Of a DNA stretch of 64,000 bases, positions 34,633 to 50,997 are shown piece by piece. Source of the DNA: an uncultured Thermotogae bacterium (lineage in GTDB: Bacteria > Bipolaricaulota > Bipolaricaulia > CAYUCE01); assembly GCA_964443275.1 (NCBI GenBank), contig CAYUCE010000002.1, positions 358 to 64,357 on the forward strand, given 5' to 3'. The notes beneath the pieces are model-generated. The model saw nothing but the letters and a program-made list of their open reading frames with translations. It was not told the origin of the DNA and ran no database searches. The position numbers were made by a program, and so were the translations under genes. How positions within the stretch are numbered: the first letter of the stretch is position 1; each line of letters begins with the position of its first letter.

Positions 34633-35391
34633 ATGGAGAAGACTCGGAAATCACGAACTGTCCTAAAAGCACTTGAAGTCTTAGAAGAGTTATCCAAGCT
34701 CGAGGAAGGGTTAACAAATGCGGAGCTTTCTCGCCGCCTTGGTCTTCATCCCAGCACCAGTTACCGGCTTCTAAATACTCTGGTCAGCAAAAATTATTTG
34801 AGTAAGGAAAATGGCCTTTACCGGCTGGGACATAAGATCCTGCAGCTTAAGTACTTGGCCCGCCGGGAGGAGAATTTGCGCCAGCGGGCACGTCCCTGGT
34901 TAATCAAGCTGGAGAGTGAAACCGGTTTTACCACAAACTTGGCCATCCTTGATATGCTTAATGCTGTACCGATTGAAATTGTAAGCGGTTCAAAGAATTT
35001 AGTAGTAAACAAAAACCTAGGCAAGCCAGTCCCACTTCATGCCACTGCAGTGGGTAAATGTCTGCTTGCATATCTACCCAAATCTGAGAGAAAAAAGCTC
35101 CTGGCTCAACTGAAACTTCAAAAGTTGACTCCGAAAACTATAACTAAGAAGGAGAAGCTACTTGAAGAGCTTAAAACCATCAAAAGACGCGGGTTTGCGG
35201 TAGATGATGAAGAGTTTGTAACCGGAATAAGATGCGTTGGAGCCCCCATATTTTCAAAGAAGGAAGCCCTAGCTGCCATAAGCGTCTCCAGCTTGTCTTC
35301 TCAGCTAGATGACGACCAGATAGGCAAAGTAGCAAAACAGGTCATTAGGACAGCGAAGGAAATCTCCTATCAGGCGGAAAATATTTCCTGA
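34633..35391 (+). CDS. IclR-family transcriptional regulator
   Basis: N-terminal wHTH (LTNAELSRRLGLHPSTSYRLLNTL) and a C-terminal IclR effector domain. A TTGACA-17-TATTAT promoter-like sequence lies at about 34563-34591. Confidence 0.85.
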   Translation: MEKTRKSRTVLKALEVLEELSKLEEGLTNAELSRRLGLHPSTSYRLLNTLVSKNYLSKENGLYRLGHKILQLKYLARREENLRQRARPWLIKLESETGFTTNLAILDMLNAVPIEIVSGSKNLVVNKNLGKPVPLHATAVGKCLLAYLPKSERKKLLAQLKLQKLTPKTITKKEKLLEELKTIKRRGFAVDDEEFVTGIRCVGAPIFSKKEALAAISVSSLSSQLDDDQIGKVAKQVIRTAKEISYQAENIS

Positions 35392-35405: not shown

Positions 35406-36722
35406 GTGACTAACTTTATTAACTTAAAAAACGAACTTCCCGGAAAGAAGTCACAAGAAATCGCCCAAAAGAGAAAGATGTATGTGACTCAAGCCGTGGG
35501 CAAACAATCGCTTTGCCCCGGTTATATTGCCAGTGGTGATGGCGCTTTAGTTACTGACGTAGACGGAAATACCTTTATCGATTTTACCGGGGGTTGGGGA
35601 TGTTTAATTGTGGGTCATACTCCAACCAGAGTAGTGAAAGCAATTAAAGAACAAGCTGAGAAATATCTTCACACGGACTTTTCAGCAGTTCCGTACGAAC
35701 CCTACGTCGAGCTTGCCGAGCGATTGGTTAAGCTGGCCCCCGGCGATTGGCCCAAAAAGGCGGCCTTTTTTAATAGTGGAGCAGAAGCGGTGGAAAATGC
35801 GGTAAAGATATCACGTGCTTACACCGGAAGGAAAGCAGTGATAGTATTCGAAAATGCCTTTCACGGCCGGACACTTCTAACTATGACCATGACCCACAAA
35901 GCCAAACCCTATAAGTACAAGTTTGGCCCATTTGCCTCCGATATCTACCGGCTACCCTATCCCAACTCCTATCGTTCTGATGGAAAATCAAAAGACTGGG
36001 AGCGGGAACTTACTTCTCTGGTCAATCCTGAAGAGGTGGCTTGCTTAGTAATAGAGCCCATACAAGGTGAAGGGGGGTTTTTAGTTCCTCCGGATGGATT
36101 CTTAAAACAATTACGGGATCTGTGTGACAAGTACGGTATCTTGTTTGTAGCAGATGAGATTCAAACCGGTATGGGCAGGACGGGGAAGATGTTTGCTATC
36201 CAACATTGGGACATCGAACCGGACATTATTACAGTAGCCAAATCGCTGGCTGCCGGGCTTCCTCTATCCGGGGTAATCGCCAAAAAAGAAGTCATCGATT
36301 CTCTTATCGAGGGAGCCATCGGAGGTACATATTGTGGAAATCCACTTGCCTGCCGGGCAGCCATCGAGGTCTTAAACCTTATCCAGGAAGAAAATCTCCT
36401 TTCACGAGCCGAAAAAATCGGCAAACAAATAAAGGAAAGATTTACTTCGATGAAGGAAAAGTACGAAATCATAGGCCATATACGGGGTATAGGAGCCATG
36501 GTGGGAATGGAATTTGTTAAAGATAGAGATACTAAGGAGCCTGCTTCAGAGGCTACTTCCCAGATCGTTAAAGATTGTGTTTCACATGGACTGCTTGTTC
36601 CCAGCTGCGGAATTTACAATAACGTAATCAGGTTGCTAGTGCCTTTGGTAATTACCGACTCCCAGCTAAGCGAGGGCCGTGACGTATTGGAAGATGCAGT
36701 CGCTAGAGTTGCAGGAATCTAA
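35406..36722 (+). CDS. Class-III PLP-dependent aminotransferase (GabT/ornithine/putrescine aminotransferase-like), copy A
   Basis: 438 aa. The Lys-PLP region is DEIQTGMGRTGKMFA. The central about 1.1 kb is near-identical to copy B at 48598..49917. Confidence 0.85.
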   Translation: MTNFINLKNELPGKKSQEIAQKRKMYVTQAVGKQSLCPGYIASGDGALVTDVDGNTFIDFTGGWGCLIVGHTPTRVVKAIKEQAEKYLHTDFSAVPYEPYVELAERLVKLAPGDWPKKAAFFNSGAEAVENAVKISRAYTGRKAVIVFENAFHGRTLLTMTMTHKAKPYKYKFGPFASDIYRLPYPNSYRSDGKSKDWERELTSLVNPEEVACLVIEPIQGEGGFLVPPDGFLKQLRDLCDKYGILFVADEIQTGMGRTGKMFAIQHWDIEPDIITVAKSLAAGLPLSGVIAKKEVIDSLIEGAIGGTYCGNPLACRAAIEVLNLIQEENLLSRAEKIGKQIKERFTSMKEKYEIIGHIRGIGAMVGMEFVKDRDTKEPASEATSQIVKDCVSHGLLVPSCGIYNNVIRLLVPLVITDSQLSEGRDVLEDAVARVAGI

Positions 36723-36966: not shown

Positions 36967-37878
36967 CTATTTTCTTCCGGAATCTAAATAACTATCGCCA
37001 TAAAAGATCTGGTGATCTTCCCAGAGCTGCTCCAGCTTCTCCAGATATTGTGTAGAGTCCTCCTTTAGCTTAAGGCTCAATGCTGTCCCGATGGCCCCGA
37101 TAAGACTGATAGGGGCAGTGAATGAATCAATGTACGAGAGAATACGACATTTCCCCAGTAACAAATGATCGGCATGTTCAGCCAGAGGAGAGAATTCACT
37201 ATCGGTGATGACCACTGTTGTTATGTCTTCTCGTTTAGCGGCCTGCAAACATTCCACAATCTCTCGGGAGTATCTGGGGAAGTTTAACCCGATAACCAAG
37301 CTGTTCTCCGACAAGCGGGCCAGTTCGCTATAGAAGACCATTGGGGTTGAGGTTATTGCTTTTACCCCATCTCGGACCCAGCGAAGAACTGTCTCCAAGT
37401 ATTCAGCTAAAGGGGAGAAGATCGTAAAAGCAACAATAACAATCTTATCGGCAGCCAGGATCTTTTCGATGACTTCTCCCACTTCTTCAAGGTCCAGGTT
37501 TTGCAAAGTATCTTCAAGGTTGTGAAGGTCAAGCAACAGGGTCTTCACTACCGGATTGGCCTTGTCTTTCACGTGGGGATGGTATTTCTTTAACCGGTTA
37601 ACGGTGGTGAGCTTGCGTTGTACCAGATCCTGAATCTTCTCCTGCAGTTCAGGATATCCTTCAAAACCACAATCCTTGGCAAATCGCACTACAGTGGATT
37701 CACTGACCTCTGTTATCTCTGCCAATTCAGCCGCAGTCATAAAGGCAACCTGGAGAAGATTGTCCAGTATAAACTTAGCGATTCTCCTCTTCTTACCCGA
37801 TAGCTCTCCCCTTTTTTCTCTTATGAGCGAATCTATATCTTTCAACTTTCCACCTTCCCTATTTAGTTGCAAGTTCAA
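36967..37878 (-). CDS. RpiR/MurR-family transcriptional regulator (HTH_6 plus SIS domain)
   Basis: ITEVSESTVVRFAKDCGFEGYPELQ is the HTH, followed by a SIS phosphosugar-binding fold. It is divergent from the ABC substrate-binding protein gene. Confidence 0.85.
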   Translation of the reverse strand: MNLQLNREGGKLKDIDSLIREKRGELSGKKRRIAKFILDNLLQVAFMTAAELAEITEVSESTVVRFAKDCGFEGYPELQEKIQDLVQRKLTTVNRLKKYHPHVKDKANPVVKTLLLDLHNLEDTLQNLDLEEVGEVIEKILAADKIVIVAFTIFSPLAEYLETVLRWVRDGVKAITSTPMVFYSELARLSENSLVIGLNFPRYSREIVECLQAAKREDITTVVITDSEFSPLAEHADHLLLGKCRILSYIDSFTAPISLIGAIGTALSLKLKEDSTQYLEKLEQLWEDHQIFYGDSYLDSGRK

Positions 37879-37942
37879 TTAAGATTAGCACGTTGTTACA
37901 TGGCTTTCAAGGTTCTACCAACCTATCCACCAATCGCCTTTA

Positions 37943-37958
37943 TGCAAGGAATCTTGCA
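37943..37958. promoter_or_regulatory. Perfect 6-4-6 palindrome TGCAAGgaatCTTGCA (candidate operator)
   Basis: Located 13 nt upstream of the -35 of the consensus promoter, in the RpiR/substrate-binding protein divergent region. Confidence 0.3.
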
Positions 37959-37970
37959 CTCTCCCTAAAC

Positions 37971-37999
37971 TTGACAGAAAAGTTGAATTATGTTATAAT
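37971..37999 (+). promoter_or_regulatory. Consensus sigma-70-type promoter TTGACA-17 nt-TATAAT driving the substrate-binding protein/permease operon
   Basis: Exact TTGACA at 37971-37976, a 17-nt spacer, and exact TATAAT at 37994-37999. It lies about 175 nt upstream of the ATG at 38176. Confidence 0.45.
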
Positions 38000-38175
38000 A
38001 ATTAAAACTATTTTCCAAGAAATTTAAGTCAAGTAAGGATATAGACCCAAGGGAAGTGTAACTTGGCTGATTTTGTAGACGGAGGTGATATATAGTAGAG
38101 ACCTTACTCAACTTATGAGATGTATCAAGACAGAGGAACTAGAATTACAAAAGAAATATAAGGAGGTAGACAGAA

Positions 38176-39750
38176 ATGGCAAAACGTCTAATCACATTTT
38201 TTGTGCTAATTAGTTTACTTGCATTCGCAAATTCTGTTGGTACGCCTCAGTCAGAAAAATATGGCGGAACGGTTCACTTCGGAATTTCCACAACACTTCC
38301 GTCGTTGAACCCCCTTAAAGGAGTAGCACCCTCAACTCGAGGTGGGACTCGGACTATTCTCACAGTTTATCGAGGCTTACTTGGATTTAATTCTGACAGT
38401 GAGTTAGTCCCTGAATTGGCAGAAAGTTACGAAACCTCAGATAATAAAACTTGGGGTTTTCGTCTGCGTGAAAACGCGAAATTTCATAATGGTGAACCGG
38501 TAATAGCCGAAGATGTTAAATTTACATTTGACTGGATTCGTGACCCTGATAATGGTGCTTTTGGCTATCAGTACTTAAAGAGAATTAAAAACACCACAAT
38601 AGTTGATAAGCATACCATAGAAATTGAACTTAAATCTCCAGATGCAACTTTTGCTTCACTGCTAACTCAAGCTTGCGCGGTTATTGTTTCAAAAGACTGG
38701 TGGCAAGATCCCGAAACTAATCCAGACATTGAAATGATGGGTGCAGGACCTTTTAAGTTTGAAGATTTAGTCGAAGGAGTAAAAGTTGTGACCAAGCGAT
38801 TTGACGATTTCTACAAAGAGGGGTTCCCGTACCTAGATAAGATGGTTGTTCACTTCTATCCCGATGAAGAAAGTAGAATTAATGCCTTGCTGGCTGGTGA
38901 TTTGGATATTATAGGTTATCCGCCTTGGAGATACATGAAGAAGATAGATGCTGACCCAAATTATGAATTGGAACTTGCCTCAGGCGTTTTAATGACCGTA
39001 GCTTTCAATCTAACGGTGGAACCTTGGACTAACATAAAAGTTCGAGAGGCCATCAGTTACGCTCTAAAACGCGATGACTACGTAGAAGGTGTTTTCTATG
39101 GCTATGCGGAGCCAATACGGGGCCCTTTGACACCTCCTGACATGAAACAGTGGTATCATGAGGGGCTAGCTGAGTTCTTTGAATACAATCCAGAAAAGGC
39201 AAAGAGACTACTTGCTGAGGCAGGTTATCCTGATGGCTTTAAGACAACAATCTTCTCAAACTATACATATGGGATGTACAAAAGAACCGCAGAAATTCTG
39301 CAAAGACAATTAAAAGAAGTGGGAATTGAAGGGGAACTTGAGCTAGTCGATTGGCCCGAGCAGGTAGAGAGATCCTGGAGCGGTAACTTTACAGGTCTAA
39401 AAGTAATAGGTACACTTTTCTTTTATCCAGATCCTGACTCTTATGTGACCACAATAGGTATTTCTGCAAAGCCTACGTTCGCATCATATGGTATAGAATC
39501 TGGAGATGTCAAAGTTCCGCTAATGAAACAAGCCCTAGAGGAAGCTCGAACTGCCGTAACAACAAAAAAAAGAGACGAATGGTATCGTGCATTCGAAGGA
39601 CTTTTCCTTGCTAAGTTTCTACAGATACCTCTCGTTGGTAGATATGATGGGACTGCTCTGAGTAAACGAGTTCAAAATTACGATCCTCCTTGTGGACAAC
39701 TCACCGGCTTTAGTGCTTTTGCACATGATTATATCTGGCTGGAACATTAA
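38176..39750 (+). CDS. ABC transporter substrate-binding protein, family 5 (peptide/nickel/opine type)
   Basis: Signal peptide, then an SBP_bac_5-like body. Length is 524 aa. Confidence 0.85.
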   Translation: MAKRLITFFVLISLLAFANSVGTPQSEKYGGTVHFGISTTLPSLNPLKGVAPSTRGGTRTILTVYRGLLGFNSDSELVPELAESYETSDNKTWGFRLRENAKFHNGEPVIAEDVKFTFDWIRDPDNGAFGYQYLKRIKNTTIVDKHTIEIELKSPDATFASLLTQACAVIVSKDWWQDPETNPDIEMMGAGPFKFEDLVEGVKVVTKRFDDFYKEGFPYLDKMVVHFYPDEESRINALLAGDLDIIGYPPWRYMKKIDADPNYELELASGVLMTVAFNLTVEPWTNIKVREAISYALKRDDYVEGVFYGYAEPIRGPLTPPDMKQWYHEGLAEFFEYNPEKAKRLLAEAGYPDGFKTTIFSNYTYGMYKRTAEILQRQLKEVGIEGELELVDWPEQVERSWSGNFTGLKVIGTLFFYPDPDSYVTTIGISAKPTFASYGIESGDVKVPLMKQALEEARTAVTTKKRDEWYRAFEGLFLAKFLQIPLVGRYDGTALSKRVQNYDPPCGQLTGFSAFAHDYIWLEH

Positions 39751-39837
39751 CAGGATTTCAAAAGGAAATATGCTTTAACACATGTGTAAACTTTGTACTT
39801 GATATTTTCGGAGCGGAAACTAGAAATAAATACACAT

Positions 39838-39870
39838 ATTCACAGGAGCTTTTCAAAAGCTCCTGTGAAT
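39838..39870. promoter_or_regulatory. Perfect 33-bp palindrome ATTCACAGGAGCTTTT-c-AAAAGCTCCTGTGAAT (intercistronic hairpin or operator)
   Basis: Two 16-nt perfectly complementary arms lie about 90 nt after the substrate-binding protein stop, inside a 430-nt gap before the permease gene. There is no downstream T-run. Confidence 0.35.
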
Positions 39871-40181
39871 ATGTCCTATCGCAAAATTCTTACTAGTGTG
39901 CGAGGCAGACTACTTCCACATTTACACATCGGACCAAAGGTTATTGTAAATACCATCTATACTATGCGGTATTTGACAAGATTACGTTGCCCATTGTTTC
40001 TGTATTCTTTTCTTAAAAGAAATAGATTTAAGAAATGCCAACCTCTGGTATTTTCACCTTTGGAAGGTCCGCTTTCCCAAGAGAAGTTAGCTTTTAAGCC
40101 ACGACTTGTAAGTAAAAAGGAAACCTGCAAAATTCGCTTAAAAATATAGCATTTACATTCGCAAAATGAGGCTGTGAAGCA

Positions 40182-41147
40182 ATGTCGATATATGCATTCA
40201 TAGTTAGACGTTTATTTGTAAGCTTCGGTACAATACTTATCATTACTGTTGTGGTATTTTCCTTTTTACACCTACTTCCTGGTGATCCCGCTCAGATGAT
40301 CCTCGGTGGTGGTACAGAAGGAGGCACTATAAATGAAGAGCAACTACAACGTATCAGACAGGAATTAAATTTAGATAAACCACTGCATATTCAATATTTT
40401 CTCTTTCTAAAAAACGCTCTCCAAGGTAATTTGGGGAAATCCTATTACAACGATCAGCCTGTTTCCAATGTGTTATTAATACGCTTCCAGAGATCATTCG
40501 AATTGGTCATATTGAGTTTTCTACTCGCGGTACCAGTTGGTATATCTCTTGGCGTATTAGCAGGCATACATAGTGGAAGATACCTTAGCACGATTATTGT
40601 TCTACTCTCTGTTTTAGGCATATCTCTTCCTGTTTACGTACTGGGTCCGCTTTTTATAAAAATATTTTCCTTGCAATTAAGTTGGCTGCCAACATCAGGA
40701 TATGTTCTCATAAGTGAGAGTACTGTGAAGCATATACAATCTCTTGTACTTCCGGTAACCACACTGTCTTTGGGCCTAATAGCAATGATTAGTAGAATAC
40801 AGCGATCAAGTCTTTTAGAAGTTCTCCACTCCGAATATATAACCACCGCAAGATCAAAAGGGCTTAATGAAGGGATAGTAATGACCAAACATGCGCTTCG
40901 GAATGCTGTAATCCCCGTTATCTCAATAGGTAGTGTACAATTAGCCCGTTTAGTAGGAGGGACTGTGGTTTTAGAAACCGTTTTTACCTACCCCGGATTA
41001 GGATTGCTACTGAAGGAATCTATTATGAGACGTGATCTACCTGTTATCCTAGGTATTGCACTTCTGGTTGGAATTACTTTTAGCATCATTAACTTACTCG
41101 TTGACTTGGCTTATTGTTTCTTGGATCCCAGGATTAGGTATGATTAA
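40182..41147 (+). CDS. ABC transporter permease (DppB/OppB-like), set 1
   Basis: 321 aa with six TM helices and the EAA-like loop region of the BPD_transp_1 family. Confidence 0.85.
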   Translation: MSIYAFIVRRLFVSFGTILIITVVVFSFLHLLPGDPAQMILGGGTEGGTINEEQLQRIRQELNLDKPLHIQYFLFLKNALQGNLGKSYYNDQPVSNVLLIRFQRSFELVILSFLLAVPVGISLGVLAGIHSGRYLSTIIVLLSVLGISLPVYVLGPLFIKIFSLQLSWLPTSGYVLISESTVKHIQSLVLPVTTLSLGLIAMISRIQRSSLLEVLHSEYITTARSKGLNEGIVMTKHALRNAVIPVISIGSVQLARLVGGTVVLETVFTYPGLGLLLKESIMRRDLPVILGIALLVGITFSIINLLVDLAYCFLDPRIRYD

Positions 41148-41997
41148 TCTTAAACAGGAATTATGCAATAAAATGAAACTTTTACGTGATTTCCGTGTTA
41201 CTATAAGCTCGATAATTATCCTCGCCTTGCTACTGTTATCTCTCTTGGCACCAGTTCTTCCAGTAAGAGATCCCTTTGAGATGAATTTCTCGAATATGTT
41301 AGAGGGACGAAGCAGCAGTTTTTTACTAGGTACAGACGAATACGGTCGTGATTTGTTAAGCAGGATACTATACGGCACAAGAGTAACCCTTTCAGTAGCT
41401 TTTGCAGCTACCACTATTGCGGCAATTCTTGGTTGCTTACTTGGTATATGTTCAGCATATTTTAGAGGATGGTCAGAAACATTCCTTATGCGAATTACAG
41501 AAGTTCTGGTATCATTTCCTCCCGTTTTACTGGCAATGATAGTGGTTGGACTTTGGGGACCGGGGATGAGAAATTTAATTCTAAGTATAGGAGTAATTCA
41601 TTCTCCTATGTTTGCCCGACTGAGCTACGGAGTAACCAAATCAGAGCGAGAGAGAGAGTACGTTAAAGCCAGCAAATCATTGGGAGCATCAAATACTTGG
41701 ATAATTGCTAAAGTGTTGTTACCCAACATCGCAGCACCTATCATTGTGCAATTTGCAGTCAACTTTGCTTGGGCAGCTCTTCTTGCTGGAGGCCTGAGTT
41801 TCCTTGGATTAGGGATCATTCCTCCCCGGCCTTCGCTTGGAAATATTCTTGCAGGTGCTCGCAGTTATATGGCCTTGAACTGGTCATATTTTCTCTGGCC
41901 TGCTGTTGTACTTGGCACTCTAATAACGGCTGTGAATATTTTAAGTGAAGGGTTGCGCGAAGCGCTGGATCCAAAGCAGCGGGGGTCAATTGTCTGA
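41140..41997 (+). CDS. ABC transporter permease (DppC/OppC-like), set 1
   Basis: Track ORF is 41056..41997. The likely start is the ATG at 41140, which overlaps the upstream stop. It has an OppC-type N-terminal domain and TM helices. Confidence 0.8.
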   Translation: MINLKQELCNKMKLLRDFRVTISSIIILALLLLSLLAPVLPVRDPFEMNFSNMLEGRSSSFLLGTDEYGRDLLSRILYGTRVTLSVAFAATTIAAILGCLLGICSAYFRGWSETFLMRITEVLVSFPPVLLAMIVVGLWGPGMRNLILSIGVIHSPMFARLSYGVTKSEREREYVKASKSLGASNTWIIAKVLLPNIAAPIIVQFAVNFAWAALLAGGLSFLGLGIIPPRPSLGNILAGARSYMALNWSYFLWPAVVLGTLITAVNILSEGLREALDPKQRGSIV

Positions 41998-42090
41998 TAA
42001 ATGCATAAAGGTAGATGCGTGGTATTTATAGATGTAGTGGGGAAAGCAGGCGAAGATTAGATATGAACGTAAAGATAAAAGGAGGTAGAC

Positions 42091-42771
42091 ATGCAAAATC
42101 TCAAGGAAAAACGAGGAGATCAAACCTACGAGACATATCAATCGATTTCAGTAGATTACATAAAAGGTGGATATCTTGATGGCACAATCGGCTTTGGAGC
42201 AAAGCCAGCAATTATTGTTATTGATTATCAAAAGGCGTTTACTACTTTTGAAGCGACTCTAGGCACAAGTGACTTAATCCAACAAGGAGTTGAAAATACA
42301 GCCATTCTTCTAAAAGAAGCTAGGAAAAAAGGAGTGCAGATTTTCTTTACCAATGTTGCCTGGAGAGAAGATAGGAAAGATTTTGGGATGTGGAAGGGTA
42401 AAATGACACAATGTCTAAAAGAGGCTACTTTGGGTACTTGGGGCGTAGAAGTAGATGACAGACTAAAAATGGAAGACGGCGATATTTTCTTCTACAAAAA
42501 GTGGCCCTCAGCTTTCCATGGCACGCCTCTCAGCACTTATTTAACCACAAAGGGAATTGATACTTTAATCGTAACTGGCTGCACCACCTCCGGATGTGTT
42601 AGGGGAACAATCTATGATTCTTTCTCTAGTGGTTTTAGAACCATCGTTCCTTATGGCTGCGTAGGTGACATAATTCAATCTGCACATGAGCAAAATCTTG
42701 CAGATATCCATAAGAGATATGCCGATGTTCTCCCATTAGAAAAGGTTATTACCTATATACGTGAGCTTTAG
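42091..42771 (+). CDS. Isochorismatase-family cysteine hydrolase (N-carbamoylsarcosine amidase / RutB-like)
   Basis: Catalytic-triad context IIVIDYQKAF ... LIVTGCTTSGCVRGTIYD. Length is 226 aa. Confidence 0.75.
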   Translation: MQNLKEKRGDQTYETYQSISVDYIKGGYLDGTIGFGAKPAIIVIDYQKAFTTFEATLGTSDLIQQGVENTAILLKEARKKGVQIFFTNVAWREDRKDFGMWKGKMTQCLKEATLGTWGVEVDDRLKMEDGDIFFYKKWPSAFHGTPLSTYLTTKGIDTLIVTGCTTSGCVRGTIYDSFSSGFRTIVPYGCVGDIIQSAHEQNLADIHKRYADVLPLEKVITYIREL

Positions 42772-42957
42772 TAATTTCTAGCAATTTCTCTGTAAAGATG
42801 TTTAAATCATGTCTTTGAATCCATGATTATAGTAAGAATATATAGAAGTTGAGAAGTGAGACAATAAGTTTTCGTAAAGGAAAGTCATGTATGATTATAC
42901 TTTTGCAGAATTTTTGCTTCCAACTGAGAATTTTAAGATCTAGCGAAAGGAATATTT

Positions 42958-44421
42958 ATGTATGGAGAAAGAAACTTCTTATCCTCTGAGCGGCCCTATC
43001 TCCGTGTTCTCTCAGAAAAACAGTTAGAGAATCTCCATTTTGCTTCTCTGCGCGTGCTGGAGAGAACGGGGATGATTTTTAACTCTTCTCAAGCTGTTGA
43101 CCTGCTTCTTTCGGCCGGTGGCCGAAGAGTTGAAGGAAATAGAATTTCGATTCCTTCTCATTTAATTGATAAATCTCTCAAGAGCGCGCCTAAGCAAATA
43201 AGGATTAGTGATCGAGAGGGTGATTCCATGATGCTCCTATCGGGCCACAATGTCTATTACGGTACTGGGTCCGATCTTCCTAGTGTCATTGATCCATATT
43301 CCGGTGAGAAGCGTGCCTCATTAGCAAAAGATGTGGGTAACTTCGCCAGGGTCTGTGACTATTTACCAAACATTGATTTTGTGATGTCTATGGCACTGGC
43401 TTCCGATCACCCTGTGGAAGTAGCCGATTTATATCATTTTTTACAGATGGTTAGCAATACGACGCTGCCCATACTCTTTACTGCTTCTAATCGTGAAAGT
43501 TTAGAATACATTTACCAAATGTGTCTGGCCATAAGGGGTAGCGAACAAGCATTGACAAAAGAGCCCTTTATAATTCACTATGCCGAACCTAGCAGTCCAC
43601 TACAGCATAGTAAAGATGCTGTTGACAAACTTCTTTTCTGCGCGAAGCACGGAATTCCGGTCACTTATCCATCCGGAACTTCTCTCGGAGTTACCGCCCC
43701 AGTCACTATCGCCGGTGCTATGGTTATGGCAAACGCAGAGTTTCTTGGTGGACTCGTTTTAAGTCAACTAACACAGGAAGGGGCTCCCATCATTTACGGT
43801 GGTGGGAATTCAGCGATGGATATGCGCACCATGGCGTATCTCTATGCAGCCCCCGAAAATTGGCTTAATGGAATGATAGTCCGGGAACTATCCTCCTACT
43901 ATAGGTTACCATGTTTTGGGGAAGGTGGCTGCGGTGATGCTAAGACCTTCGACCAACAAGCAAGTAGTGAGGCCACAAGCACATTGTTAGTTACTAGTCT
44001 GATTGGTACAAACCTTATACATGATGTGGGATACATCGAGTCAGGCAAGACAGGTTCCTATGGAATGCTTTTGCTATCTGATGACGTTATTGGACAAATT
44101 AAACGTTTTCTCCGTGGGGTCGAGGTATCGAATGAAACCCTAGCAGTAGAAGTATTAGACAGAGTTGGACCAGGAGGTAATTTTCTCACCGATCAACATA
44201 CTCTAAACCATTTTAAGGATTCAATTTATAATCCAAATTATTTTGATCGCCAAACCTTTAGTCAGTGGGTAAAACAAGGCAAAAAAGCACTTGGTCAAGT
44301 ATTGAACGAGAAAGCTAGATGGATTTTGGAAAATCATGAACCTAAACCTTTACCAGAAGGAGTTAAGCAGAAGATAAATACCATCATTCAAAAAGCCGAG
44401 GAACAAAGGGAAAGAACGTAA
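42958..44421 (+). CDS. MttB-superfamily (trimethylamine/quaternary-amine:corrinoid methyltransferase-like) protein, non-pyrrolysine
   Basis: The N-terminus LSEKQLENLHFASLRVLERTGMIF matches the family start. The core GIPVTYPSGTSLGVTAPVTIAGAMVMANAEFLGGLVLSQLT...YGGGNS...DAK...VSNETLAVEVLDRVGPGGNFL aligns along MttB/MtgB. A Cys/Gly sits at the position of the UAG/Pyl residue of true MttB. No corrinoid protein or RamA-like activase is in the window. Confidence 0.7.
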   Translation: MYGERNFLSSERPYLRVLSEKQLENLHFASLRVLERTGMIFNSSQAVDLLLSAGGRRVEGNRISIPSHLIDKSLKSAPKQIRISDREGDSMMLLSGHNVYYGTGSDLPSVIDPYSGEKRASLAKDVGNFARVCDYLPNIDFVMSMALASDHPVEVADLYHFLQMVSNTTLPILFTASNRESLEYIYQMCLAIRGSEQALTKEPFIIHYAEPSSPLQHSKDAVDKLLFCAKHGIPVTYPSGTSLGVTAPVTIAGAMVMANAEFLGGLVLSQLTQEGAPIIYGGGNSAMDMRTMAYLYAAPENWLNGMIVRELSSYYRLPCFGEGGCGDAKTFDQQASSEATSTLLVTSLIGTNLIHDVGYIESGKTGSYGMLLLSDDVIGQIKRFLRGVEVSNETLAVEVLDRVGPGGNFLTDQHTLNHFKDSIYNPNYFDRQTFSQWVKQGKKALGQVLNEKARWILENHEPKPLPEGVKQKINTIIQKAEEQRERT

Positions 44422-44467
44422 TAACATTCTTGTATGATTTTGTGAACAACTAAAAGGAGGATATAAA

Positions 44468-45451
44468 TTGGAAAATGCTTTTGATTTTGTGAAACTTCAT
44501 GCAGGTTGGGATGAGTGTATATTGATTTTTGGGGAGCAATTGCCCAAAGGTGAAGAGCTTAACATTAGCTTATCTCTATTAAAGAAACCAAGCATTGGTG
44601 GAACGGAGGTTGGAATCCTCTATCCTCCTAACGATTCAGGGGATATCAGGGTTAAGATAGTTGATGCTACCAGCAATAGCTATATACGAATGTGTGGAGG
44701 ACTCACACAATCTTTAGGAAAAGCCATTGTTGAAACCAATATCGGTGAAAAGCTAGGGATAACGATACCTGATGGAACGCAAGAAGTCCTATTAGAAACA
44801 GATGCCGGGCTTATTCCCATTGAAATCGAGGTTCAAAATCACATCACCCGGAAGGTAGTCACTAAAATGGATTCTTACCTTACTGATTGTTATGAACGTG
44901 GAGTTGAGTTGGAAAAACTAGATGGAATGTCCGTGGTAGATGTCGGTATTAATGAGGAAGAAAAGGAGTTTTTGGTTATCGATATTGAAGAGCTATCGAG
45001 ACGGTTCTCTAAAGTTAATTTTTTTAAGAGGGAAGAGGCTGCTCTGAATATCTTAGAAGAGGTTTACCGCAAGTTTCTCAGTTCACGCGAAATGTCTTTG
45101 AAATATTTATATGGTGCCCTATATCAGCTTAAAGAGTCAGGGGCAGAAAAGAGGATTCAAACTGTATTCCGCTTCTTTCCATGGGATTATTCACCAGGGG
45201 ATAATTTGGAGTTCGCTTGCGGTACTGGGACAATAGCCATTGGTATCGCCATGTATGAGCGCGGACAGATAGATTTTTCTGATGGAACTGAAAACTTATT
45301 TTTAACCGTTGGTGGAAAACACCTTCCCTCAGGAACAAGAGCGAAAACTCACTTACAACTGGAGGGTACGAAGCAGGGGATAACAAGTGCCCGATTTAGC
45401 CATGACCGTATTGAAATAGTAGCCAGTGGCAAGATCTACATTACTGCATGA
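44468..45451 (+). CDS. DapF-fold PLP-independent amino-acid racemase/epimerase family protein
   Basis: N-terminal FDFVKLHAGWDECILIF matches DapF FSKMHGLGNDFMVV. Two catalytic-Cys motifs are present: RMCGGLTQS and EFACGTGTIAIGIA. The second matches the SPCGTGTSA motif of proline racemase. Confidence 0.5.
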   Translation: MENAFDFVKLHAGWDECILIFGEQLPKGEELNISLSLLKKPSIGGTEVGILYPPNDSGDIRVKIVDATSNSYIRMCGGLTQSLGKAIVETNIGEKLGITIPDGTQEVLLETDAGLIPIEIEVQNHITRKVVTKMDSYLTDCYERGVELEKLDGMSVVDVGINEEEKEFLVIDIEELSRRFSKVNFFKREEAALNILEEVYRKFLSSREMSLKYLYGALYQLKESGAEKRIQTVFRFFPWDYSPGDNLEFACGTGTIAIGIAMYERGQIDFSDGTENLFLTVGGKHLPSGTRAKTHLQLEGTKQGITSARFSHDRIEIVASGKIYITA

Positions 45452-45577
45452 TTTTTCCCTCTAGACGCTGCTAAGACTGAGTTAGTAGCATGGCTATTAA
45501 CAAATCCGAAATAAATATTAGTAGAAAGAAACGATGCTCAGTAACTGCTAGAGCGATAGCAAAGTGTAGGTGATCAA

Positions 45578-46504
45578 ATGGGGATCACCCAATATTTCAT
45601 AAGACGTTTACTGTTAATCATTCCAGTAATACTGGTGGTTTCAGTAGTTAATTTCTCGATGCTCCATTTGGCCCCAGGTGATCCTGTACGGGTAATGGTT
45701 AACCCTCGAATGGGTGAGGAGGCCATTCAACAAAAACGCAAAGAGTTGGGATTGGACAAACCACTCTTTATTCAATATTTGAACTTTATGAAGAGGATAA
45801 TTACAGGCAACCTGGGACGCTCAATCTACACCAGGGAGCGTATCGAAGCTATGATACTGCGGCGTCTATCAAACACATTAATCTTGGGAATCACTGCTCT
45901 CACTCTGGCTTTTCTTATTGCAATACCTTTTGGTACTTTGGCTGCGAAATACCGTGGAAGGTTACTAGATTACGCTTCTATGTTTGCAGCCCTTGTTGGC
46001 CTTTCTATGCCCCAATTTTGGCTGGGGCTAGTACTAATGCTGGTGTTTGCAATAAAACTTGGGTGGTTCCCAGTGGCTGGTTACGGAGACTTAAGACATC
46101 TTGTGCTTCCCGCTATCACCCTTGCTGCATATTTTACAGGTCTTATGACCCGATTGAACCGTTCTAGCTTGCTGGAAGTGATGGGAAAAGACTACATGTT
46201 TACCGCCCGAGCCAAGGGACTTTCTGAGGTAACTGTGCTTTTCAAACACGGACTGCGTAACTCTTTGACTACCGTAATTTCCTTCTTGGGATTACAGGTT
46301 GGCTGGCTAGTAGGGGGAGCGGTAATGGTGGAATTCGTTTTTAATAGGCCGGGGTTGGGAAGATTGATCGTACAATCCCTTTATCGGCGGGATTATCCGG
46401 TAATACAGATTCTTTTACTTATTCTGGTTACCTCAGTTATATTGGGAAATTTACTAGCCGATCTATGCTATGCAACGGTCAACCCAAAAATTAGATATAA
46501 ATAG
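45578..46504 (+). CDS. ABC transporter permease (DppB/OppB-like), set 2
   Basis: 308 aa paralog of the set 1 permease, with six TM helices. Confidence 0.85.
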   Translation: MGITQYFIRRLLLIIPVILVVSVVNFSMLHLAPGDPVRVMVNPRMGEEAIQQKRKELGLDKPLFIQYLNFMKRIITGNLGRSIYTRERIEAMILRRLSNTLILGITALTLAFLIAIPFGTLAAKYRGRLLDYASMFAALVGLSMPQFWLGLVLMLVFAIKLGWFPVAGYGDLRHLVLPAITLAAYFTGLMTRLNRSSLLEVMGKDYMFTARAKGLSEVTVLFKHGLRNSLTTVISFLGLQVGWLVGGAVMVEFVFNRPGLGRLIVQSLYRRDYPVIQILLLILVTSVILGNLLADLCYATVNPKIRYK

Positions 46505-46515
46505 GGTCAGTTGCC

Positions 46516-47334
46516 ATGCGAGTACTTAAACATAAGCAGATAATTTTTGGAGGCGGGGTAATACTGGTCTTTTGCACGATAGCGATACTCGCTCCTTATA
46601 TTATCCCTTATCACTATTGGGAGCAGGATTTAATGGAGTCCCTACACGAGCCTAGTGGAGAGCACTTCTTTGGTACGGATAATTTCGGGCGTGATGTCTT
46701 TAGCCGAGTTGTTTATGGAACACGAATATCACTTATTTCCGCGCTGGGAGCTGCAGGAGTTGCTTCTATAGTGGGATTAACTCTGGGGTTGTTGGCCGGT
46801 TATTTAGGAGGAGCGGTGGATCGAGTTGTCCAAACGGCAATTGACGTATCCTGGTCGTTCCCCACAGTACTATTGGCTATTTTGATTGCATCAGTAGCAA
46901 GCCCGGGATTGAGCTCCACTATTATCGCCATTGCAGCCGTGTATTGGGCACAATATGCGCGGGTAATCCGGGGAGAGGTTTTATCAGTAAGGGAGGAAGA
47001 GTACGTACACGCCGCCAAGAGTATCGGCTGTACGGAGGTCAGGGTAATGGCTCGCCATGTGTTTCCCAACGTGGTCCCCCCGATGATAGTGATGATAAGT
47101 ATCACCATGGGATACGCTATATTACTAGAAGCAATGCTAAGTTTTTTAGGTGTCGGAGTTCAACCTCCCACTCCTAGTTGGGGAATCGTTCTCTCCGAAG
47201 GGCGTGATTTTCTGACCAGAGCCCCCTGGATAACCCTCTTTCCAGGCATGATCATTTCCCTAGCCGTTCTAGCTTTCAATTTCCTTGGTGATGGACTGAG
47301 GGATTACCTCGATCCATATATGAAGCGGATATGA
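46516..47334 (+). CDS. ABC transporter permease (DppC/OppC-like), set 2
   Basis: 272 aa with an OppC-type TM arrangement. Confidence 0.85.
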   Translation: MRVLKHKQIIFGGGVILVFCTIAILAPYIIPYHYWEQDLMESLHEPSGEHFFGTDNFGRDVFSRVVYGTRISLISALGAAGVASIVGLTLGLLAGYLGGAVDRVVQTAIDVSWSFPTVLLAILIASVASPGLSSTIIAIAAVYWAQYARVIRGEVLSVREEEYVHAAKSIGCTEVRVMARHVFPNVVPPMIVMISITMGYAILLEAMLSFLGVGVQPPTPSWGIVLSEGRDFLTRAPWITLFPGMIISLAVLAFNFLGDGLRDYLDPYMKRI

Positions 47335-47571
47335 GAGATAGCACTTGAAAACGTAGATAACTTGGTTAGGAAACGGGGGCTTAGAGTTTTATAACCCAGT
47401 AAGTGATATAGGCGATATCATTTGGGATCGATCTTTCACGAGTATAGCTTCTTAATTAAGTCTATTTTATTTCTGGCAGTTGAACAGTTGTTTAAAGATG
47501 AGGATATGAAAAAACCGTGGGATTTCTTGAAAGATAAATCAAATTAGGTTCTAAAAAGGAGTAAATATAGA

Positions 47572-48504
47572 ATGAAAAACAGAATGAAAGGTAGAGATTT
47601 TTTAACTTTAATGGATTACACTAAAGAGGAGATAACCTGGATTTTAGAGTGCGCAGATGAATTAAAACGTTCTTGGGCTAAGGGTGAACCTCATGAATAT
47701 CTTAGGGGAAAAACTGTTGCCGCTCTGTTTGAGAAGCAGTCCACCAGAACCCGTACCTCCTTTCAAGCTGGAATGGCTCATTTAGGAGGTCAAAGCTTCT
47801 ATATGAGACCTGATGAGCTTCAGCTAGGACGTGGGGAGCCCATTAAGGACACAGCTAGAGTAATTGATCGCTACTGTGATGCCCTGTTTATTAGAACTTA
47901 TGGACAGGAGATAGCGGAGGAGTTTGCAGAGTACATGAAAAATCCGGTTATCAACGCCTTGACCAATTTAACTCATCCTTGCCAGGGGCTTGCGGATCTT
48001 TTAACTATTAAGGAAAAAAAGGGAGGATTTAAAGATCTAAAGTTAGCTTACACGGGCGCTGTCTCTAACGTATGTCATAGCCTCATGATAGGAGGAACCA
48101 TTATGGGGATAGATGTTTACGTGGCTAGACCAGAAGGTTATGATCCTGACCCCCGCCCGTTAAAATTTGCTGAAGAGAAGGCCAAAGGCTCGGGGAAAAA
48201 TCTTATTGTTACAGATGATCTAAACGAAGCAGTAAACAACGCGGATATAGTTTATGCCGATGCTTGGCATGCTATGGGAACTAAGGATAAGGAGCAAAAA
48301 GAAGAGAATTTTTTGCCTTTTCAGATAAATGAAGAAGTGTTAGCCCTGGCAAAAGATGACTTTATCTTTATGCATTGCCTGCCTGCATATAGAGGGAAAG
48401 AGGTAACTGAGATGGTAATCGAAGGTCCGCATTCAGTGGTTTGGGATCAAGCGGAAAATAGGATGCACACGGAGAAGGCGATATTAGCGTTGCTTGTTCA
48501 ATAA
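47572..48504 (+). CDS. Carbamoyltransferase of the OTC/ATC family (ornithine or putrescine carbamoyltransferase, catabolic context)
   Basis: STRTR motif (FEKQSTRTRTSFQAG) for carbamoyl-phosphate binding, plus HPCQ and HCLP motifs. Length is 310 aa. Confidence 0.85.
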   Translation: MKNRMKGRDFLTLMDYTKEEITWILECADELKRSWAKGEPHEYLRGKTVAALFEKQSTRTRTSFQAGMAHLGGQSFYMRPDELQLGRGEPIKDTARVIDRYCDALFIRTYGQEIAEEFAEYMKNPVINALTNLTHPCQGLADLLTIKEKKGGFKDLKLAYTGAVSNVCHSLMIGGTIMGIDVYVARPEGYDPDPRPLKFAEEKAKGSGKNLIVTDDLNEAVNNADIVYADAWHAMGTKDKEQKEENFLPFQINEEVLALAKDDFIFMHCLPAYRGKEVTEMVIEGPHSVVWDQAENRMHTEKAILALLVQ

Positions 48505-48597
48505 CCGGAGGGTAAGTTATTTATTTACAGTTATATTAATCGTAATTGGTTATGGAATTGGGAACTACCAATGAAGAAGATCGAAAGGAGGATTTAG

Positions 48598-49917
48598 ATG
48601 TCTACTCGACCTAGTTTTATCTCTTTTAGCACCTGTTCCCCTGGCCCAAAGTCAAAGGAAATTGCCAAGAAGAGAGAGAGGTTTGTAACTAATGCATTGG
48701 GCAGGCAATCTCTTTGTCCCGGTTATATTGCCAGTGGTGATGGCGCTTTGGTCACCGACATAGACGGAAATACCTTTATCGATTTTACCGGGGGTTGGGG
48801 ATGTTTAATCGTCGGTCATACTCCAACCAGAGTAGTGAAAGCAATTAAAGAACAAGCTGAGAAATATCTTCACACGGACTTTTCAGCAGTTCCGTACGAA
48901 CCCTACGTCGAGCTTGCCGAGCGATTGGTTAAGCTGGCCCCCGGCGATTGGCCCAAAAAGGCGGCCTTTTTTAATAGTGGAGCAGAAGCGGTGGAAAATG
49001 CGGTAAAGATATCACGTGCTTACACCGGAAGGAAAGCAGTGATAGTATTCGAAAATGCCTTTCACGGCCGGACACTTCTAACTATGACCATGACCCACAA
49101 AGCCAAACCCTATAAGTACAAGTTTGGCCCATTTGCCTCCGATATCTACCGGCTACCCTATCCCAACTCCTATCGTTCTGATGGAAAATCAAAAGACTGG
49201 GAGCGGGAACTTACTTCTCTGGTCAATCCTGAAGAGGTGGCTTGCTTAGTAATAGAGCCCATACAAGGTGAAGGGGGGTTTTTAGTTCCTCCGGATGGAT
49301 TCTTAAAACAATTACGGGATCTGTGTGACAAGTACGGTATCTTGTTTGTAGCAGATGAGATTCAAACCGGTATGGGCAGGACGGGGAAGATGTTTGCTAT
49401 CCAACATTGGGACATCGAACCGGACATTATTACAGTAGCCAAATCGCTGGCTGCCGGGCTTCCTCTATCCGGGGTAATCGCCAAAAAAGAAGTCATCGAT
49501 TCTCTTATCGAGGGAGCCATCGGAGGTACATATTGTGGAAATCCACTTGCCTGCCGGGCAGCCATCGAGGTCTTAAACCTTATCCAGGAAGAAAATCTCC
49601 TTTCACGAGCCGAAAAAATCGGCAAACAAATAAAGGAAAGATTTACTTCGATGAAGGAAAAGTACGAAATCATAGGCCATATACGGGGTATAGGAGCCAT
49701 GGTGGGAATGGAATTTGTTAAAGATAGAGATACTAAGGAGCCTGCTTCAGAGGCTACTTCCCAGATCGTTAAAGATTGTGTTTCACATGGACTGCTTGTT
49801 CCCAGCTGCGGAATTTACAATAACGTAATCAGATTACTGGTGCCTTTGGTAATTACCGACTCCCAGCTAAGCGAGGGCTTGGACGTGTTAGAGGAGGCGA
49901 TCTCCAGTATTGCTTAA
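48598..49917 (+). CDS. Class-III PLP-dependent aminotransferase, copy B
   Basis: 439 aa. Identical to copy A between QSLCPGYIASGDG and VITDSQLSEG. The termini are divergent. Confidence 0.85.
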   Translation: MSTRPSFISFSTCSPGPKSKEIAKKRERFVTNALGRQSLCPGYIASGDGALVTDIDGNTFIDFTGGWGCLIVGHTPTRVVKAIKEQAEKYLHTDFSAVPYEPYVELAERLVKLAPGDWPKKAAFFNSGAEAVENAVKISRAYTGRKAVIVFENAFHGRTLLTMTMTHKAKPYKYKFGPFASDIYRLPYPNSYRSDGKSKDWERELTSLVNPEEVACLVIEPIQGEGGFLVPPDGFLKQLRDLCDKYGILFVADEIQTGMGRTGKMFAIQHWDIEPDIITVAKSLAAGLPLSGVIAKKEVIDSLIEGAIGGTYCGNPLACRAAIEVLNLIQEENLLSRAEKIGKQIKERFTSMKEKYEIIGHIRGIGAMVGMEFVKDRDTKEPASEATSQIVKDCVSHGLLVPSCGIYNNVIRLLVPLVITDSQLSEGLDVLEEAISSIA

Positions 49918-50037
49918 CTCAGCACCAAACGTAGAAGTCTCCGGTTGGGCACAGAGGCCCAACCATATGACCCTATAGGTACGACCAAACGTAGGGAATG
50001 GCCTCTGTGCCATTCCGAAACCGCGCTAGTAACTACT

Positions 50038-50997
50038 ATGGCAAATAAAAATAAGGCTCAAGATAGGATAGTGATAGCTGTAGGAGGAAATGCCATCCTT
50101 AAGCCCGATCAACCGTGGTCGGCTAAAAGGCAACTGGACAATATAAAGACTACCTGCAAGCAACTGGGAGAGATAATCATAAAGGATGGATACCAACCAG
50201 TCCTCACCTACGGAAACGGCCCCCAGGTAGGCAACATCCTTCTTCAAAACGAAATTGCCAAACAGAAAGTTTCGCCGATGCCTCTGGATATTTGCGGAGC
50301 CCAGAGCCAGGGGCTTTTGGGTTATCTGCTAAGTAAGGAACTAAGAGGTGTTTTGGAAGAAAACGGCTTGCGAGATTTTCAAGTGATCTCGGTGATAACC
50401 CAAACTTTGGTAAGCTCAGATGATCCCGCCTTCACCAATCCCACCAAACCTATTGGTCCTTTCTACTCCCGAAAGGAAGCTGAAAAGCTAAAAAAAGAGA
50501 GAGGTTATCAAATTACCCAAGATGCTAACCGCGGTTGGCGTCGGGTGGTCCCCTCCCCCGATCCCATAACAATTGTGGAAAGTCCGGTGATAAAGCATCT
50601 GGTGGATAAAAAAGTCATAGTCATTGCTTCCGGTGGAGGAGGTGTACCGGTTACCAAAGAAGATGGGCAACTTATAGGTAAAGAAGCAGTTATAGATAAA
50701 GACCTGGCTGCCTGTAAGTTAGCTTGTGACATCAAAGCCAGAACCCTGCTTATTTTAACCGATGTCCAGCAGGTGATGCTCGATTACGGCACCAGCAAGG
50801 CGAGGGGAATCGAGCGGATGAACCTAGAGGAAGCAAGAAAATATCTGGATGAGGGCCACTTCGCCGCAGGCAGCATGAAACCCAAAGTAAAAGCCTGTAT
50901 TAAATTCGTTGAAAATGGCGGTCAAAAAGCGATAATTACTTCTTTGGATAAAGCCATACAAGGACTTTCCGGAAAAGCTGGTACCACTATTTATTAA
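50038..50997 (+). CDS. arcC: Carbamate kinase
   Basis: Likely start is MANKNKAQDRIVIAVGGNAIL at 50038; the track ORF begins at 49945. Carbamate-kinase/amino-acid-kinase fold, 319 aa. Confidence 0.8.
   Translation: MANKNKAQDRIVIAVGGNAILKPDQPWSAKRQLDNIKTTCKQLGEIIIKDGYQPVLTYGNGPQVGNILLQNEIAKQKVSPMPLDICGAQSQGLLGYLLSKELRGVLEENGLRDFQVISVITQTLVSSDDPAFTNPTKPIGPFYSRKEAEKLKKERGYQITQDANRGWRRVVPSPDPITIVESPVIKHLVDKKVIVIASGGGGVPVTKEDGQLIGKEAVIDKDLAACKLACDIKARTLLILTDVQQVMLDYGTSKARGIERMNLEEARKYLDEGHFAAGSMKPKVKACIKFVENGGQKAIITSLDKAIQGLSGKAGTTIY

Follow-up and report, generated by a model that had tools for sequence, protein, structure and literature searches.

A putative catabolic locus of a Bipolaricaulota bacterium that pairs a non-pyrrolysine MttB homolog with a racemase of a rare family

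Methyltransferases of the MttB superfamily that lack pyrrolysine (non-Pyl) have been described for glycine betaine (MtgB), proline betaine (MtpB), carnitine (MtcB), gamma-butyrobetaine (MtyB) and phosphocholine (MthB) (PMC13080624, PMC8604678). The substrate is bound in MtgB by residues Y97, R312, H348 and F356, of which R312 is conserved in all characterised non-Pyl members (PMC13080624). Here we analyse a locus with a homolog of these enzymes, located at positions 36967-50997 of a 64-kb stretch of DNA (the window) from an uncultured Thermotogae bacterium that is placed in the Bipolaricaulota by GTDB (contig CAYUCE010000002.1). In addition to the MttB homolog, the locus encodes a Cys/Cys racemase (Rac), a cysteine amidohydrolase, components of Dpp-type ABC importers, an ornithine carbamoyltransferase (OTC), an aminotransferase and a carbamate kinase (CK), all of which had been assigned in the original prediction to a single, ATP-yielding pathway. 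Our preferred reading, to which we give a probability of roughly 55%, is that the locus is a chromosomal catabolic patchwork of separately conserved gene sets and not one conserved pathway. Its MttB–racemase core is a new variation on the MttB-type methylotrophic systems, and its OTC/CK part is ordinary.

Like the described non-Pyl MttB systems, the window protein has the fold and family signature over its full length and no pyrrolysine codon, and distant members of the MttB–racemase pairing are accompanied by a corrinoid protein and a pterin-binding methyltransferase. Unlike in these systems, the window protein lacks three of the four substrate-binding residues of MtgB, has a cysteine at the pyrrolysine position and no corrinoid partner in the window, and is encoded together with a Cys/Cys racemase, a Dpp-type importer, an aminotransferase and an amidohydrolase. 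In the aerobic degradation of proline betaine and hydroxyproline betaine, a chiral betaine is epimerised and demethylated step by step at the nitrogen before the resulting amino acid is catabolised, and one ProR-family enzyme, 4-hydroxyproline epimerase, takes part. The demethylases of that aerobic route are O2-dependent Rieske or flavin enzymes, and its betaine epimerase (HpbD) belongs to the enolase superfamily. In contrast, the corresponding candidates in the window are an MttB homolog and an enzyme with the DapF/ProR fold, occurring in metagenome-assembled genomes (MAGs) of anaerobes. In the literature searched, MttB is connected neither with a racemase of the DapF/ProR type nor with proline betaine or OTC/CK, and a cluster of OTC, CK and a 4-aminobutyrate (GABA) transaminase is not described, in agreement with the original remark that no described pathway with this gene set was known.

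The MttB homolog and the adjacent racemase

The MttB homolog (42958..44421, plus strand) matches the family profile PF06253 end to end, over residues 8-482, with 302 bits at a cut-off of 25, which places it in the MttB superfamily as a presumed substrate:corrinoid methyltransferase. Its open reading frame (ORF) is uninterrupted by in-frame stops, and with 425 bits it stays below the cut-off of 525 for the pyrrolysine-dependent trimethylamine methyltransferase MttB (TIGR02369). The residue aligned with the pyrrolysine of the Pyl-MttB structure 7xcl is Cys325. Near the corresponding codon, inside the gene, positions 43930-44029 give a sub-threshold match to PYLIS_3, the mttB pyrrolysine-insertion element (23.5 bits versus 38), which is probably residual sequence homology.

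In an alignment to 9yce and 2qne, residues Y97, R312, H348 and F356 of MtgB correspond to S105, F320, H355 and G363 of the window protein, such that the histidine alone is kept. Judged by the arginine, the protein does not belong to the characterised non-Pyl methyltransferases of acidic quaternary amines (MtgB, MtcB, MtyB, MtpB and MthB), and an assignment as glycine-betaine methyltransferase was rejected on these active-site residues. Among 137 aligned sequences, comprising the top 120 database matches and the homologs derived from the compared loci, the position of MtgB R312 is occupied by Phe or Trp in 129 and the pyrrolysine position by Cys in 102. By these counts and the aligned residues, the window protein belongs to a large uncharacterised clade, with a predicted substrate recognition unlike that of every characterised member. 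A three-component corrinoid system, in which a corrinoid protein, a tetrahydrofolate (THF) or coenzyme M methyltransferase and an activase are co-encoded, is not present within the 64-kb window; no homolog of the corrinoid protein, Pterin_bind or MtmB-like genes of L005/L006 was found there, although such genes may be located elsewhere in the genome, and the earlier description of the protein as an orphan is borne out within the window.

The racemase gene (44468..45451, plus strand) lies directly downstream of the MttB gene and encodes a protein of 327 residues with the two-domain DapF/ProR fold, including one catalytic Cys at a helix N-terminus in each domain. The protein scores just below the gathering threshold of the Pfam family Pro_racemase (PF05544; 25.3 bits versus 27) and far below the cut-off of the NCBIfam proline racemase model (24.6 versus 556). 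In an alignment of 43 members the motifs C76-G-G and C251-G-T-G are invariant. A profile search of 1.84 billion representative sequences yields just 72 clusters at E<=1e-30, with a sharp drop beyond. Unlike the members of the superfamily of proline racemase, hydroxyproline 2-epimerase and diaminopimelate epimerase, to which histidine racemase and O-ureidoserine racemase also belong, Rac forms a small family of its own: its identity to any solved superfamily member is only 10-17%, and its gene context differs from those of ProR, HypE and DapF. By these measures Rac represents a rare, unnamed and sharply bounded family of putative Cys/Cys racemases.

Gene neighbourhoods of the pair and of the carbamoyltransferase

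The neighbourhoods of approximately 50 racemase loci, including 40 from representative genomes, were screened with the window proteins (about 130 loci with the OTC set). Every Rac homolog at least 39% identical to the window copy has a neighbouring MttB gene wherever the upstream sequence is present; this set comprises the window and the loci L001/L002, L003/L004/L013, L005, L006/L007, L011, L012, L014, L015, L131 and L133. In most of these loci the MttB gene lies directly 5' of the racemase gene, with spacings that range from a 20-nt overlap (gene calls of L006/L007) to 38-52 nt (the window, L001, L003, L131, L133, L011 and L012). The two genes form a divergent pair in L014 and L015, and a short ORF lies between them in L005. 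The carriers are MAGs of anaerobes labelled Spirochaetota, Bipolaricaulota and Bathyarchaeia. Genes for a family-5 substrate-binding protein (SBP5) and DppBC permeases are found in most pair loci with sufficient flanking sequence.

The closest relatives L001 and L131 share the gene order GntR, aminotransferase, DppB, DppC, SBP5, M20, MttB, racemase and a second MttB, and L003 has the order aminotransferase, FmdA/AmdA, MttB and racemase. The amidohydrolase encoded 5' of MttB is thus isochorismatase-like in the window and of the M20 or FmdA/AmdA type in the relatives, which suggests a conserved amide or ureido hydrolysis step carried out by interchangeable families. Within the 64-kb window, pseudogene remnants of the L001-type binding protein, M20, second MttB, FmdA, corrinoid protein, MtmB-like, Pterin_bind and Ldh_2 genes were searched for and none was found. 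The MttB–racemase clusters of L005, L006/L007 and L012 include a corrinoid protein gene, and in L009, L017 and L031 such a gene lies near MttB. A Pterin_bind methyltransferase gene is present in L005, L006/L007, L011 and L012. The presence of both components beside the more distant pairs supports corrinoid-dependent methyl transfer for the MttB–racemase pairing in general. Dehydrogenases of the 2-hydroxyacid and Ldh_2 types are also encoded in L006/L007 and L011, and RpiR homologs (42-43% identity to the window regulator) lie near the pairs of L006 and L012.

Below approximately 37% identity the Rac homologs mostly lack a neighbouring MttB gene, with the exception of L009, L017 and L031. The recurring neighbours of these more distant homologs (L016, L020, L033, L039, L045-L050 and others) are Amidohydro_3, SBP5/DppBC and genes resembling Asp/Glu/hydantoin racemase and, in one or two copies, saccharopine dehydrogenase, a setting that appears to be a second, different and uncharacterised context of the family. 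Saccharopine-dehydrogenase-like genes also adjoin OTC in several of the OTC loci. In L009 the Rac homolog (10001-10858, 33% identity) is located within a pyrrolysine gene cluster, in which a radical-SAM gene and a class-II tRNA-synthetase-like gene are probably pylB and pylS, respectively. This cluster further comprises genes similar to PylC and PylD, a split Dimeth_Pyl gene of the mtbB type, and genes for MttB, a corrinoid protein and a RACo activase.

The OTC gene (47572..48504, plus strand), which is preceded by a 237-nt gap, encodes a predicted enzyme of the short, ArgF-like type that passes TIGR00658 (393 bits versus 281) and NF001986 (390 versus 306). It carries the motifs STRTR, HPCQ and HCLP, whereas the loop that is DxxxSMG in canonical OTCs reads DAWHAMG, with Ser replaced by Ala; most metagenomic relatives (L051-L130, 63-72% identity) carry NTWHSMG at this site, and a few have other variants. 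The score for putrescine carbamoyltransferase (TIGR04384) is 286 bits, far under the cut-off of 500, and an agmatine deiminase pathway was rejected on this basis. CK (49945..50997, plus strand) passes the ArcC equivalog TIGR00746 (403 bits versus 358); the match begins at residue 41 of the listed ORF, the true start likely being the ATG at 50038.

The OTC comparison covered 80 metagenomic loci with relatives 63-72% identical to the window enzyme, and neighbours were counted in 78 of these. A CK gene lies within 2.5 kb of OTC in approximately 18 of the 78 loci and a GABA-transaminase-type aminotransferase gene in approximately 16. Within 6 kb, a 317-residue protein resembling arginine deiminase (ADI) and DDAH is encoded in 22 loci and an ADI-like protein in 9 (31/78 together). 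The OTC gene is also repeatedly accompanied by genes for a second, ATCase-like carbamoyltransferase, for sigma-54 activators and for importers of the Liv or Dpp type. This recurrence with ADI/DDAH-like genes, CK and importers indicates that OTC, aminotransferase and CK form an independently conserved catabolic module of the arginine-deiminase type. Like the arginine deiminase pathway (ArcA, ArcB and ArcC), the window has neighbouring OTC and CK genes whose products pass the equivalog models, and relatives of its OTC gene occur beside genes of the ADI superfamily. Unlike that pathway, the window contains no arginine deiminase or antiporter, its OTC is of the short ArgF-like type, and a GABA-transaminase-type aminotransferase gene lies between OTC and CK.

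This aminotransferase is present in two class-III copies on the plus strand, copy A (35406..36722; Aminotran_3, 418 bits) upstream of the flagged range and copy B (48598..49917) between OTC and CK, which are 94.7% identical at the protein level. A core of 1019 nt is 100% identical (35613-36631 and 48814-49832), and both ends are 75-90% identical, which suggests either a recent gene conversion or an artefact of assembly or polishing. Copy B passes the 4-aminobutyrate transaminase model TIGR00700 (524 bits versus 507), with GabT and PuuE as the best solved relatives (1e-123), and scores on the acetylornithine aminotransferase models below their cut-offs. Identity of the window aminotransferase to its counterparts in L001, L003 and L131 amounts to 64-67%, and in a neighbour-joining tree the window copies group with these MttB–racemase-linked enzymes, in a group that is sister to the OTC-linked ones.

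The flagged family-5 binding protein of the Dpp/Opp/opine type (38176..39750, plus strand; SBP_bac_5, 297 bits) has AgaA (6hlx) as its best solved relative, at an E value of 6.6e-72 and far ahead of peptide- and nickel-binding proteins; AgaA is a binding protein for the opine agropinic acid. With approximately 25% identity, the window protein is not an ortholog of the binding proteins of the L001 and L131 clusters. The solved-structure matches of the L001 binding protein and M20 enzyme were tried as a clue and proved uninformative, being NikA-like and generically ArgE-like only. Two DppB/DppC pairs, all on the plus strand, accompany the single binding protein in the window. The first consists of DppB1 (40182..41147; BPD_transp_1 and BPD_transp_1_N) and DppC1 (41056..41997; BPD_transp_1, 90 bits), whose real start is probably 3' of the listed TTG. 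The second, identified by Pfam, consists of DppB2 (45578..46504) and DppC2 (46516..47334), which are orthologs of the permeases in the MttB–racemase operon of L001 (74% and 71% identity, respectively). No ATPase gene accompanies the permeases in the available sequence of L001 and L131.

The isochorismatase-family cysteine amidohydrolase (42091..42771, plus strand; PF00857, 111 bits) resembles N-carbamoylsarcosine and maleamate amidohydrolases. Its best solved relatives are N-carbamoylsarcosine amidohydrolases (26st_A, 3.6e-40; 1nba, 2.2e-32), followed by three generically named entries of the isochorismatase family. Residues D45, K136 and C169 align with positions 51, 144 and 177 of 1NBA, the catalytic Asp/Lys/Cys triad of that enzyme. 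The assignment to the isochorismatase family, of which N-carbamoylsarcosine amidase is a member, was already part of the original prediction and is in agreement with these matches. Homologs of the hydrolase are labelled maleamate amidohydrolase by JGI, and no NCBIfam equivalog is reached. The closest homolog on a long contig (65% identity) adjoins a CN_hydrolase amidase and amide-type binding proteins and none of the genes of the window cluster. Similarity to the creatinine or N-methylhydantoin route lies in these relatives, the kept triad and the fact that sarcosine as a product would be an N-methyl amine; unlike in that route, the usual creatinine deaminase and N-methylhydantoinase families are not among the Pfam matches of the cluster. 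The creatinine route was rejected as the leading explanation, since sarcosine is achiral and would leave no role for the racemase, and since the hydrolase is not conserved with MttB in the relatives.

One pathway or two gene sets

The gene set that had been proposed as a unit is recovered in part. The MttB–racemase pair, usually with Dpp genes, recurs, and it is joined by an aminotransferase and an amidohydrolase gene in L001, L003 and L131, but OTC, CK and the isochorismatase-family gene are found in none of the approximately 50 racemase loci, and the racemase in none of the 80 OTC loci. The combined set is therefore unique to the window among the loci compared, and to judge from these gene neighbourhoods it may be a simple juxtaposition. 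A separation into different operons in relatives, which had been named as grounds for abandoning the single-pathway proposal, is partly observed: OTC, aminotransferase and CK, as well as the hydrolase, occur in other contexts, whereas the synteny of MttB and racemase is kept. Of the proposed ATP-yielding pathway there remains a real catabolic locus with a conserved MttB–racemase core, but OTC, aminotransferase and CK recur as a module of their own with ADI/DDAH-like genes. The reading as a patchwork thus builds on observed family memberships and catalytic motifs, on the conserved adjacency within each set and on the lack of the combined set elsewhere.

For the first set, which consists of the MttB homolog, the downstream Cys/Cys racemase, the Dpp-type permeases, the GABA-transaminase-type aminotransferase and the amidohydrolase, we infer a substrate class and a direction of flux as follows. 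The Dpp/opine-type ABC system would import a chiral, N-methylated amino compound that bears an amide or ureido group, which would be cleaved by the N-carbamoylsarcosine-amidase-like cysteine hydrolase, or by the M20 or FmdA/AmdA enzyme in the relatives. The MttB homolog would then pass the N-methyl group to a corrinoid protein whose gene would lie in another part of the host genome, the racemase would interconvert the D and L forms at the alpha carbon, making one stereoisomer consumable, and the aminotransferase would take off the remaining amino group. In view of the likeness to proline and hydroxyproline enzymes and of the reductases of the Ldh_2 and OCD types that are encoded near some relatives, a reasonable first guess at the substrate would be proline-type betaines. 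The second set, OTC and CK sharing the aminotransferase, would constitute the lower half of an arginine-deiminase-type route, in which citrulline and phosphate are converted to ornithine and carbamoyl phosphate, and carbamoyl phosphate and ADP to ATP, CO2 and NH3.

Several observations weigh against this division into two sets and the functions proposed for them. The window protein has F320 in place of R312 of MtgB, the arginine of all characterised non-Pyl members (PMC13080624). A corrinoid protein, a methyl-corrinoid:THF methyltransferase and an activase were not found within the 64-kb window, nor were they seen in L001, L003 and L131, the closest relatives, as far as their sequence is available. 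An ADI or DDAH homolog that could supply citrulline was not found in the window, which does not have the make-up of an ADI operon, and a DppD/F-type ABC ATPase for either permease pair was not found anywhere in it. The aminotransferase links both sets, lying beside OTC and CK in the window yet grouping phylogenetically with the MttB–racemase-linked copies. L072 and L074 combine aminotransferase and OTC with a Dpp-type ABC system and an M20 enzyme, and in L102 (3714-9198) and L103 a distant MttB homolog (30-32% identity) lies beside CK and OTC. A site scan detected no terminator or strong promoter between DppC2 and OTC, such that co-transcription is possible. The shared aminotransferase, the links in L072/L074 and L102/L103 and the lack of a separating terminator or promoter together make a metabolite shared by the two sets conceivable, such as ornithine or another omega-amino acid. 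A coupling of demethylation and racemisation to ATP gain from carbamoyl phosphate is possible but unsupported. Neighbours of the distant MttB homolog in L102 and L103 also include an unannotated protein of 378 residues and a class-III aminotransferase; the contig carries a Snf7-like gene and is possibly archaeal.

In the alternative of one integrated pathway, as originally proposed, a single compound with both a ureido or carbamoyl group and N-methyl groups, possibly of D configuration, would be imported. Part of its decarbamoylation would proceed via OTC and CK and yield ATP, MttB would demethylate it, and racemisation and transamination would complete its breakdown. Twelve plus-strand genes of the locus are contiguous with no terminator detected, the hydrolase is closest to N-carbamoylsarcosine amidohydrolase, the aminotransferase family is common to both sets, and L102/L103 and L072/L074 loosely tie MttB or Dpp genes to OTC and CK. 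We nevertheless consider one integrated pathway unlikely, because the combined set is present in no other locus of the approximately 130 examined, the OTC passes an ornithine-specific equivalog and has relatives located with ADI/DDAH-like genes, and relatives have M20 or FmdA/AmdA in place of the hydrolase, whose own closest homolog lies elsewhere. It is quite unlikely that, in this clade, MttB and racemase work together as two enzymes without corrinoid-dependent methyl transfer, for instance with a TIM barrel of MttB that only binds or otherwise transforms a cationic amine. Such a system would be consistent with the missing corrinoid partner in the window and in the available L001, L003 and L131 sequence, with the loss of the arginine of the characterised non-Pyl members, with Cys at the pyrrolysine position in 102 of 137 relatives and with the close spacing of the two genes, but the whole protein matches a methyltransferase family end to end, and more distant MttB–racemase pairs (54% and 43% identity) lie in complete clusters with corrinoid protein and Pterin_bind genes.

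Two further explanations concern the OTC module and the contig itself. The 1019-nt aminotransferase repeat could mark a mis-join or local homogenisation, such that the gene arrangement is partly an assembly artefact; the 100% identical core, the diverged ends in both copies and the metagenomic origin of the contig fit this possibility. The isochorismatase–MttB–racemase segment is, however, identical in an independent Logan assembly, the contig runs without a break into the unique sequence that flanks each copy on either side, and gene conversion between paralogs yields the same pattern, which makes an artefact very unlikely. The least probable of the explanations weighed is that OTC, aminotransferase and CK are anabolic, as ArgF, an ArgD-like enzyme and a kinase making carbamoyl phosphate for arginine biosynthesis, and merely neighbour a catabolic operon. 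Although the OTC is of the short ArgF-like type (NF001986, 390 bits versus 306) and the aminotransferase scores on acetylornithine aminotransferase models below the cut-offs, the latter passes the GABA-transaminase model and not argD, the OTC relatives are flanked by ADI/DDAH-like hydrolases, CK and importers in a catabolic context, and no other arg genes were found among the cluster genes or the larger flanking ORFs, the part of the window that was scanned for them.

Beyond the patchwork reading, a more far-reaching proposal is that the MttB clade with Cys at the pyrrolysine position and the racemase constitute an undescribed anaerobic route for chiral N-methylated amino compounds, with Dpp/opine-type uptake and a substrate recognition unlike that of any characterised MttB-family enzyme. 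In this host the route would be joined to OTC and CK and would thereby also gain ATP from a ureido-bearing form of the substrate. This proposal is tentative and on balance improbable. Its candidate substrates may include proline-, hydroxyproline- and other alpha-amino-acid betaines and their amide or ureido conjugates.

Setting of the locus and implications

Domain assignments in the window were made with Pfam and equivalog assignments with the NCBIfam/TIGRFAM cut-offs, and together with the ORFs these searches recover the genes and families named in the original prediction where it had placed them. Its inventory was incomplete on the upstream side, where copy A of the aminotransferase and an IclR-family regulator gene directly 5' of it (34633..35391, plus strand; IclR_C, 156 bits, and HTH_IclR, with no NCBIfam equivalog reached), outside the flagged range, had been overlooked. 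The genes are also not all co-oriented as had been supposed: the RpiR/MurR-family regulator gene (36967..37878; HTH_6 and SIS) alone is encoded by the minus strand and diverges from the genes of the transporter. The designation as an island does not hold, since nothing marks the stretch as horizontally acquired: its G+C content (0.40-0.45) does not differ from that of the remaining window (0.39-0.46), and the flanks are housekeeping genes, including UvrC, LeuRS, MetRS, CysRS, DnaE, enolase and Lpt. The Lpt genes indicate that the host is a diderm bacterium. One ORF in the window (18114-21680, 1188 aa) encodes an LptF/LptG permease domain, after which come a weak LptD_N/LptA-like match under the threshold and a long C-terminal part without Pfam match; another (56277-58943, 888 aa) has no Pfam match.

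In a scan for promoters and terminators, in which the total site counts were not above those of shuffled sequence and promoters were scored as consensus matches only, two sites stood out. A sigma-70-like consensus promoter (37971..37999, plus strand), TTGACA-17-TATAAT with TG and a 12/12 match, lies 5' of the binding-protein gene and is the sole perfect match in the region. A perfect palindromic hairpin with a 19-bp stem (39834..39874) lies 3' of the same gene and is possibly an attenuator within the operon or an mRNA-stabilising element. It falls in the 431-nt gap between the binding-protein and permease genes (39751-40181), which also holds an ORF of 118 aa without Pfam match. No riboswitch or other RNA that would indicate a ligand reached the Rfam gathering thresholds, and a permissive scan gave matches at chance level only.

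MttB-superfamily proteins are very numerous in anaerobes, and the substrates known for a handful of them are all acidic quaternary amines. A large uncharacterised MttB clade becomes accessible to tests through its conserved association with a racemase, an importer of the peptide/opine type, an aminotransferase and an amidohydrolase of interchangeable family. This clade is found in sediment and subsurface lineages (Bathyarchaeia, Bipolaricaulota and Spirochaetota), whose role in the turnover of methylated amines and organic nitrogen is poorly known.

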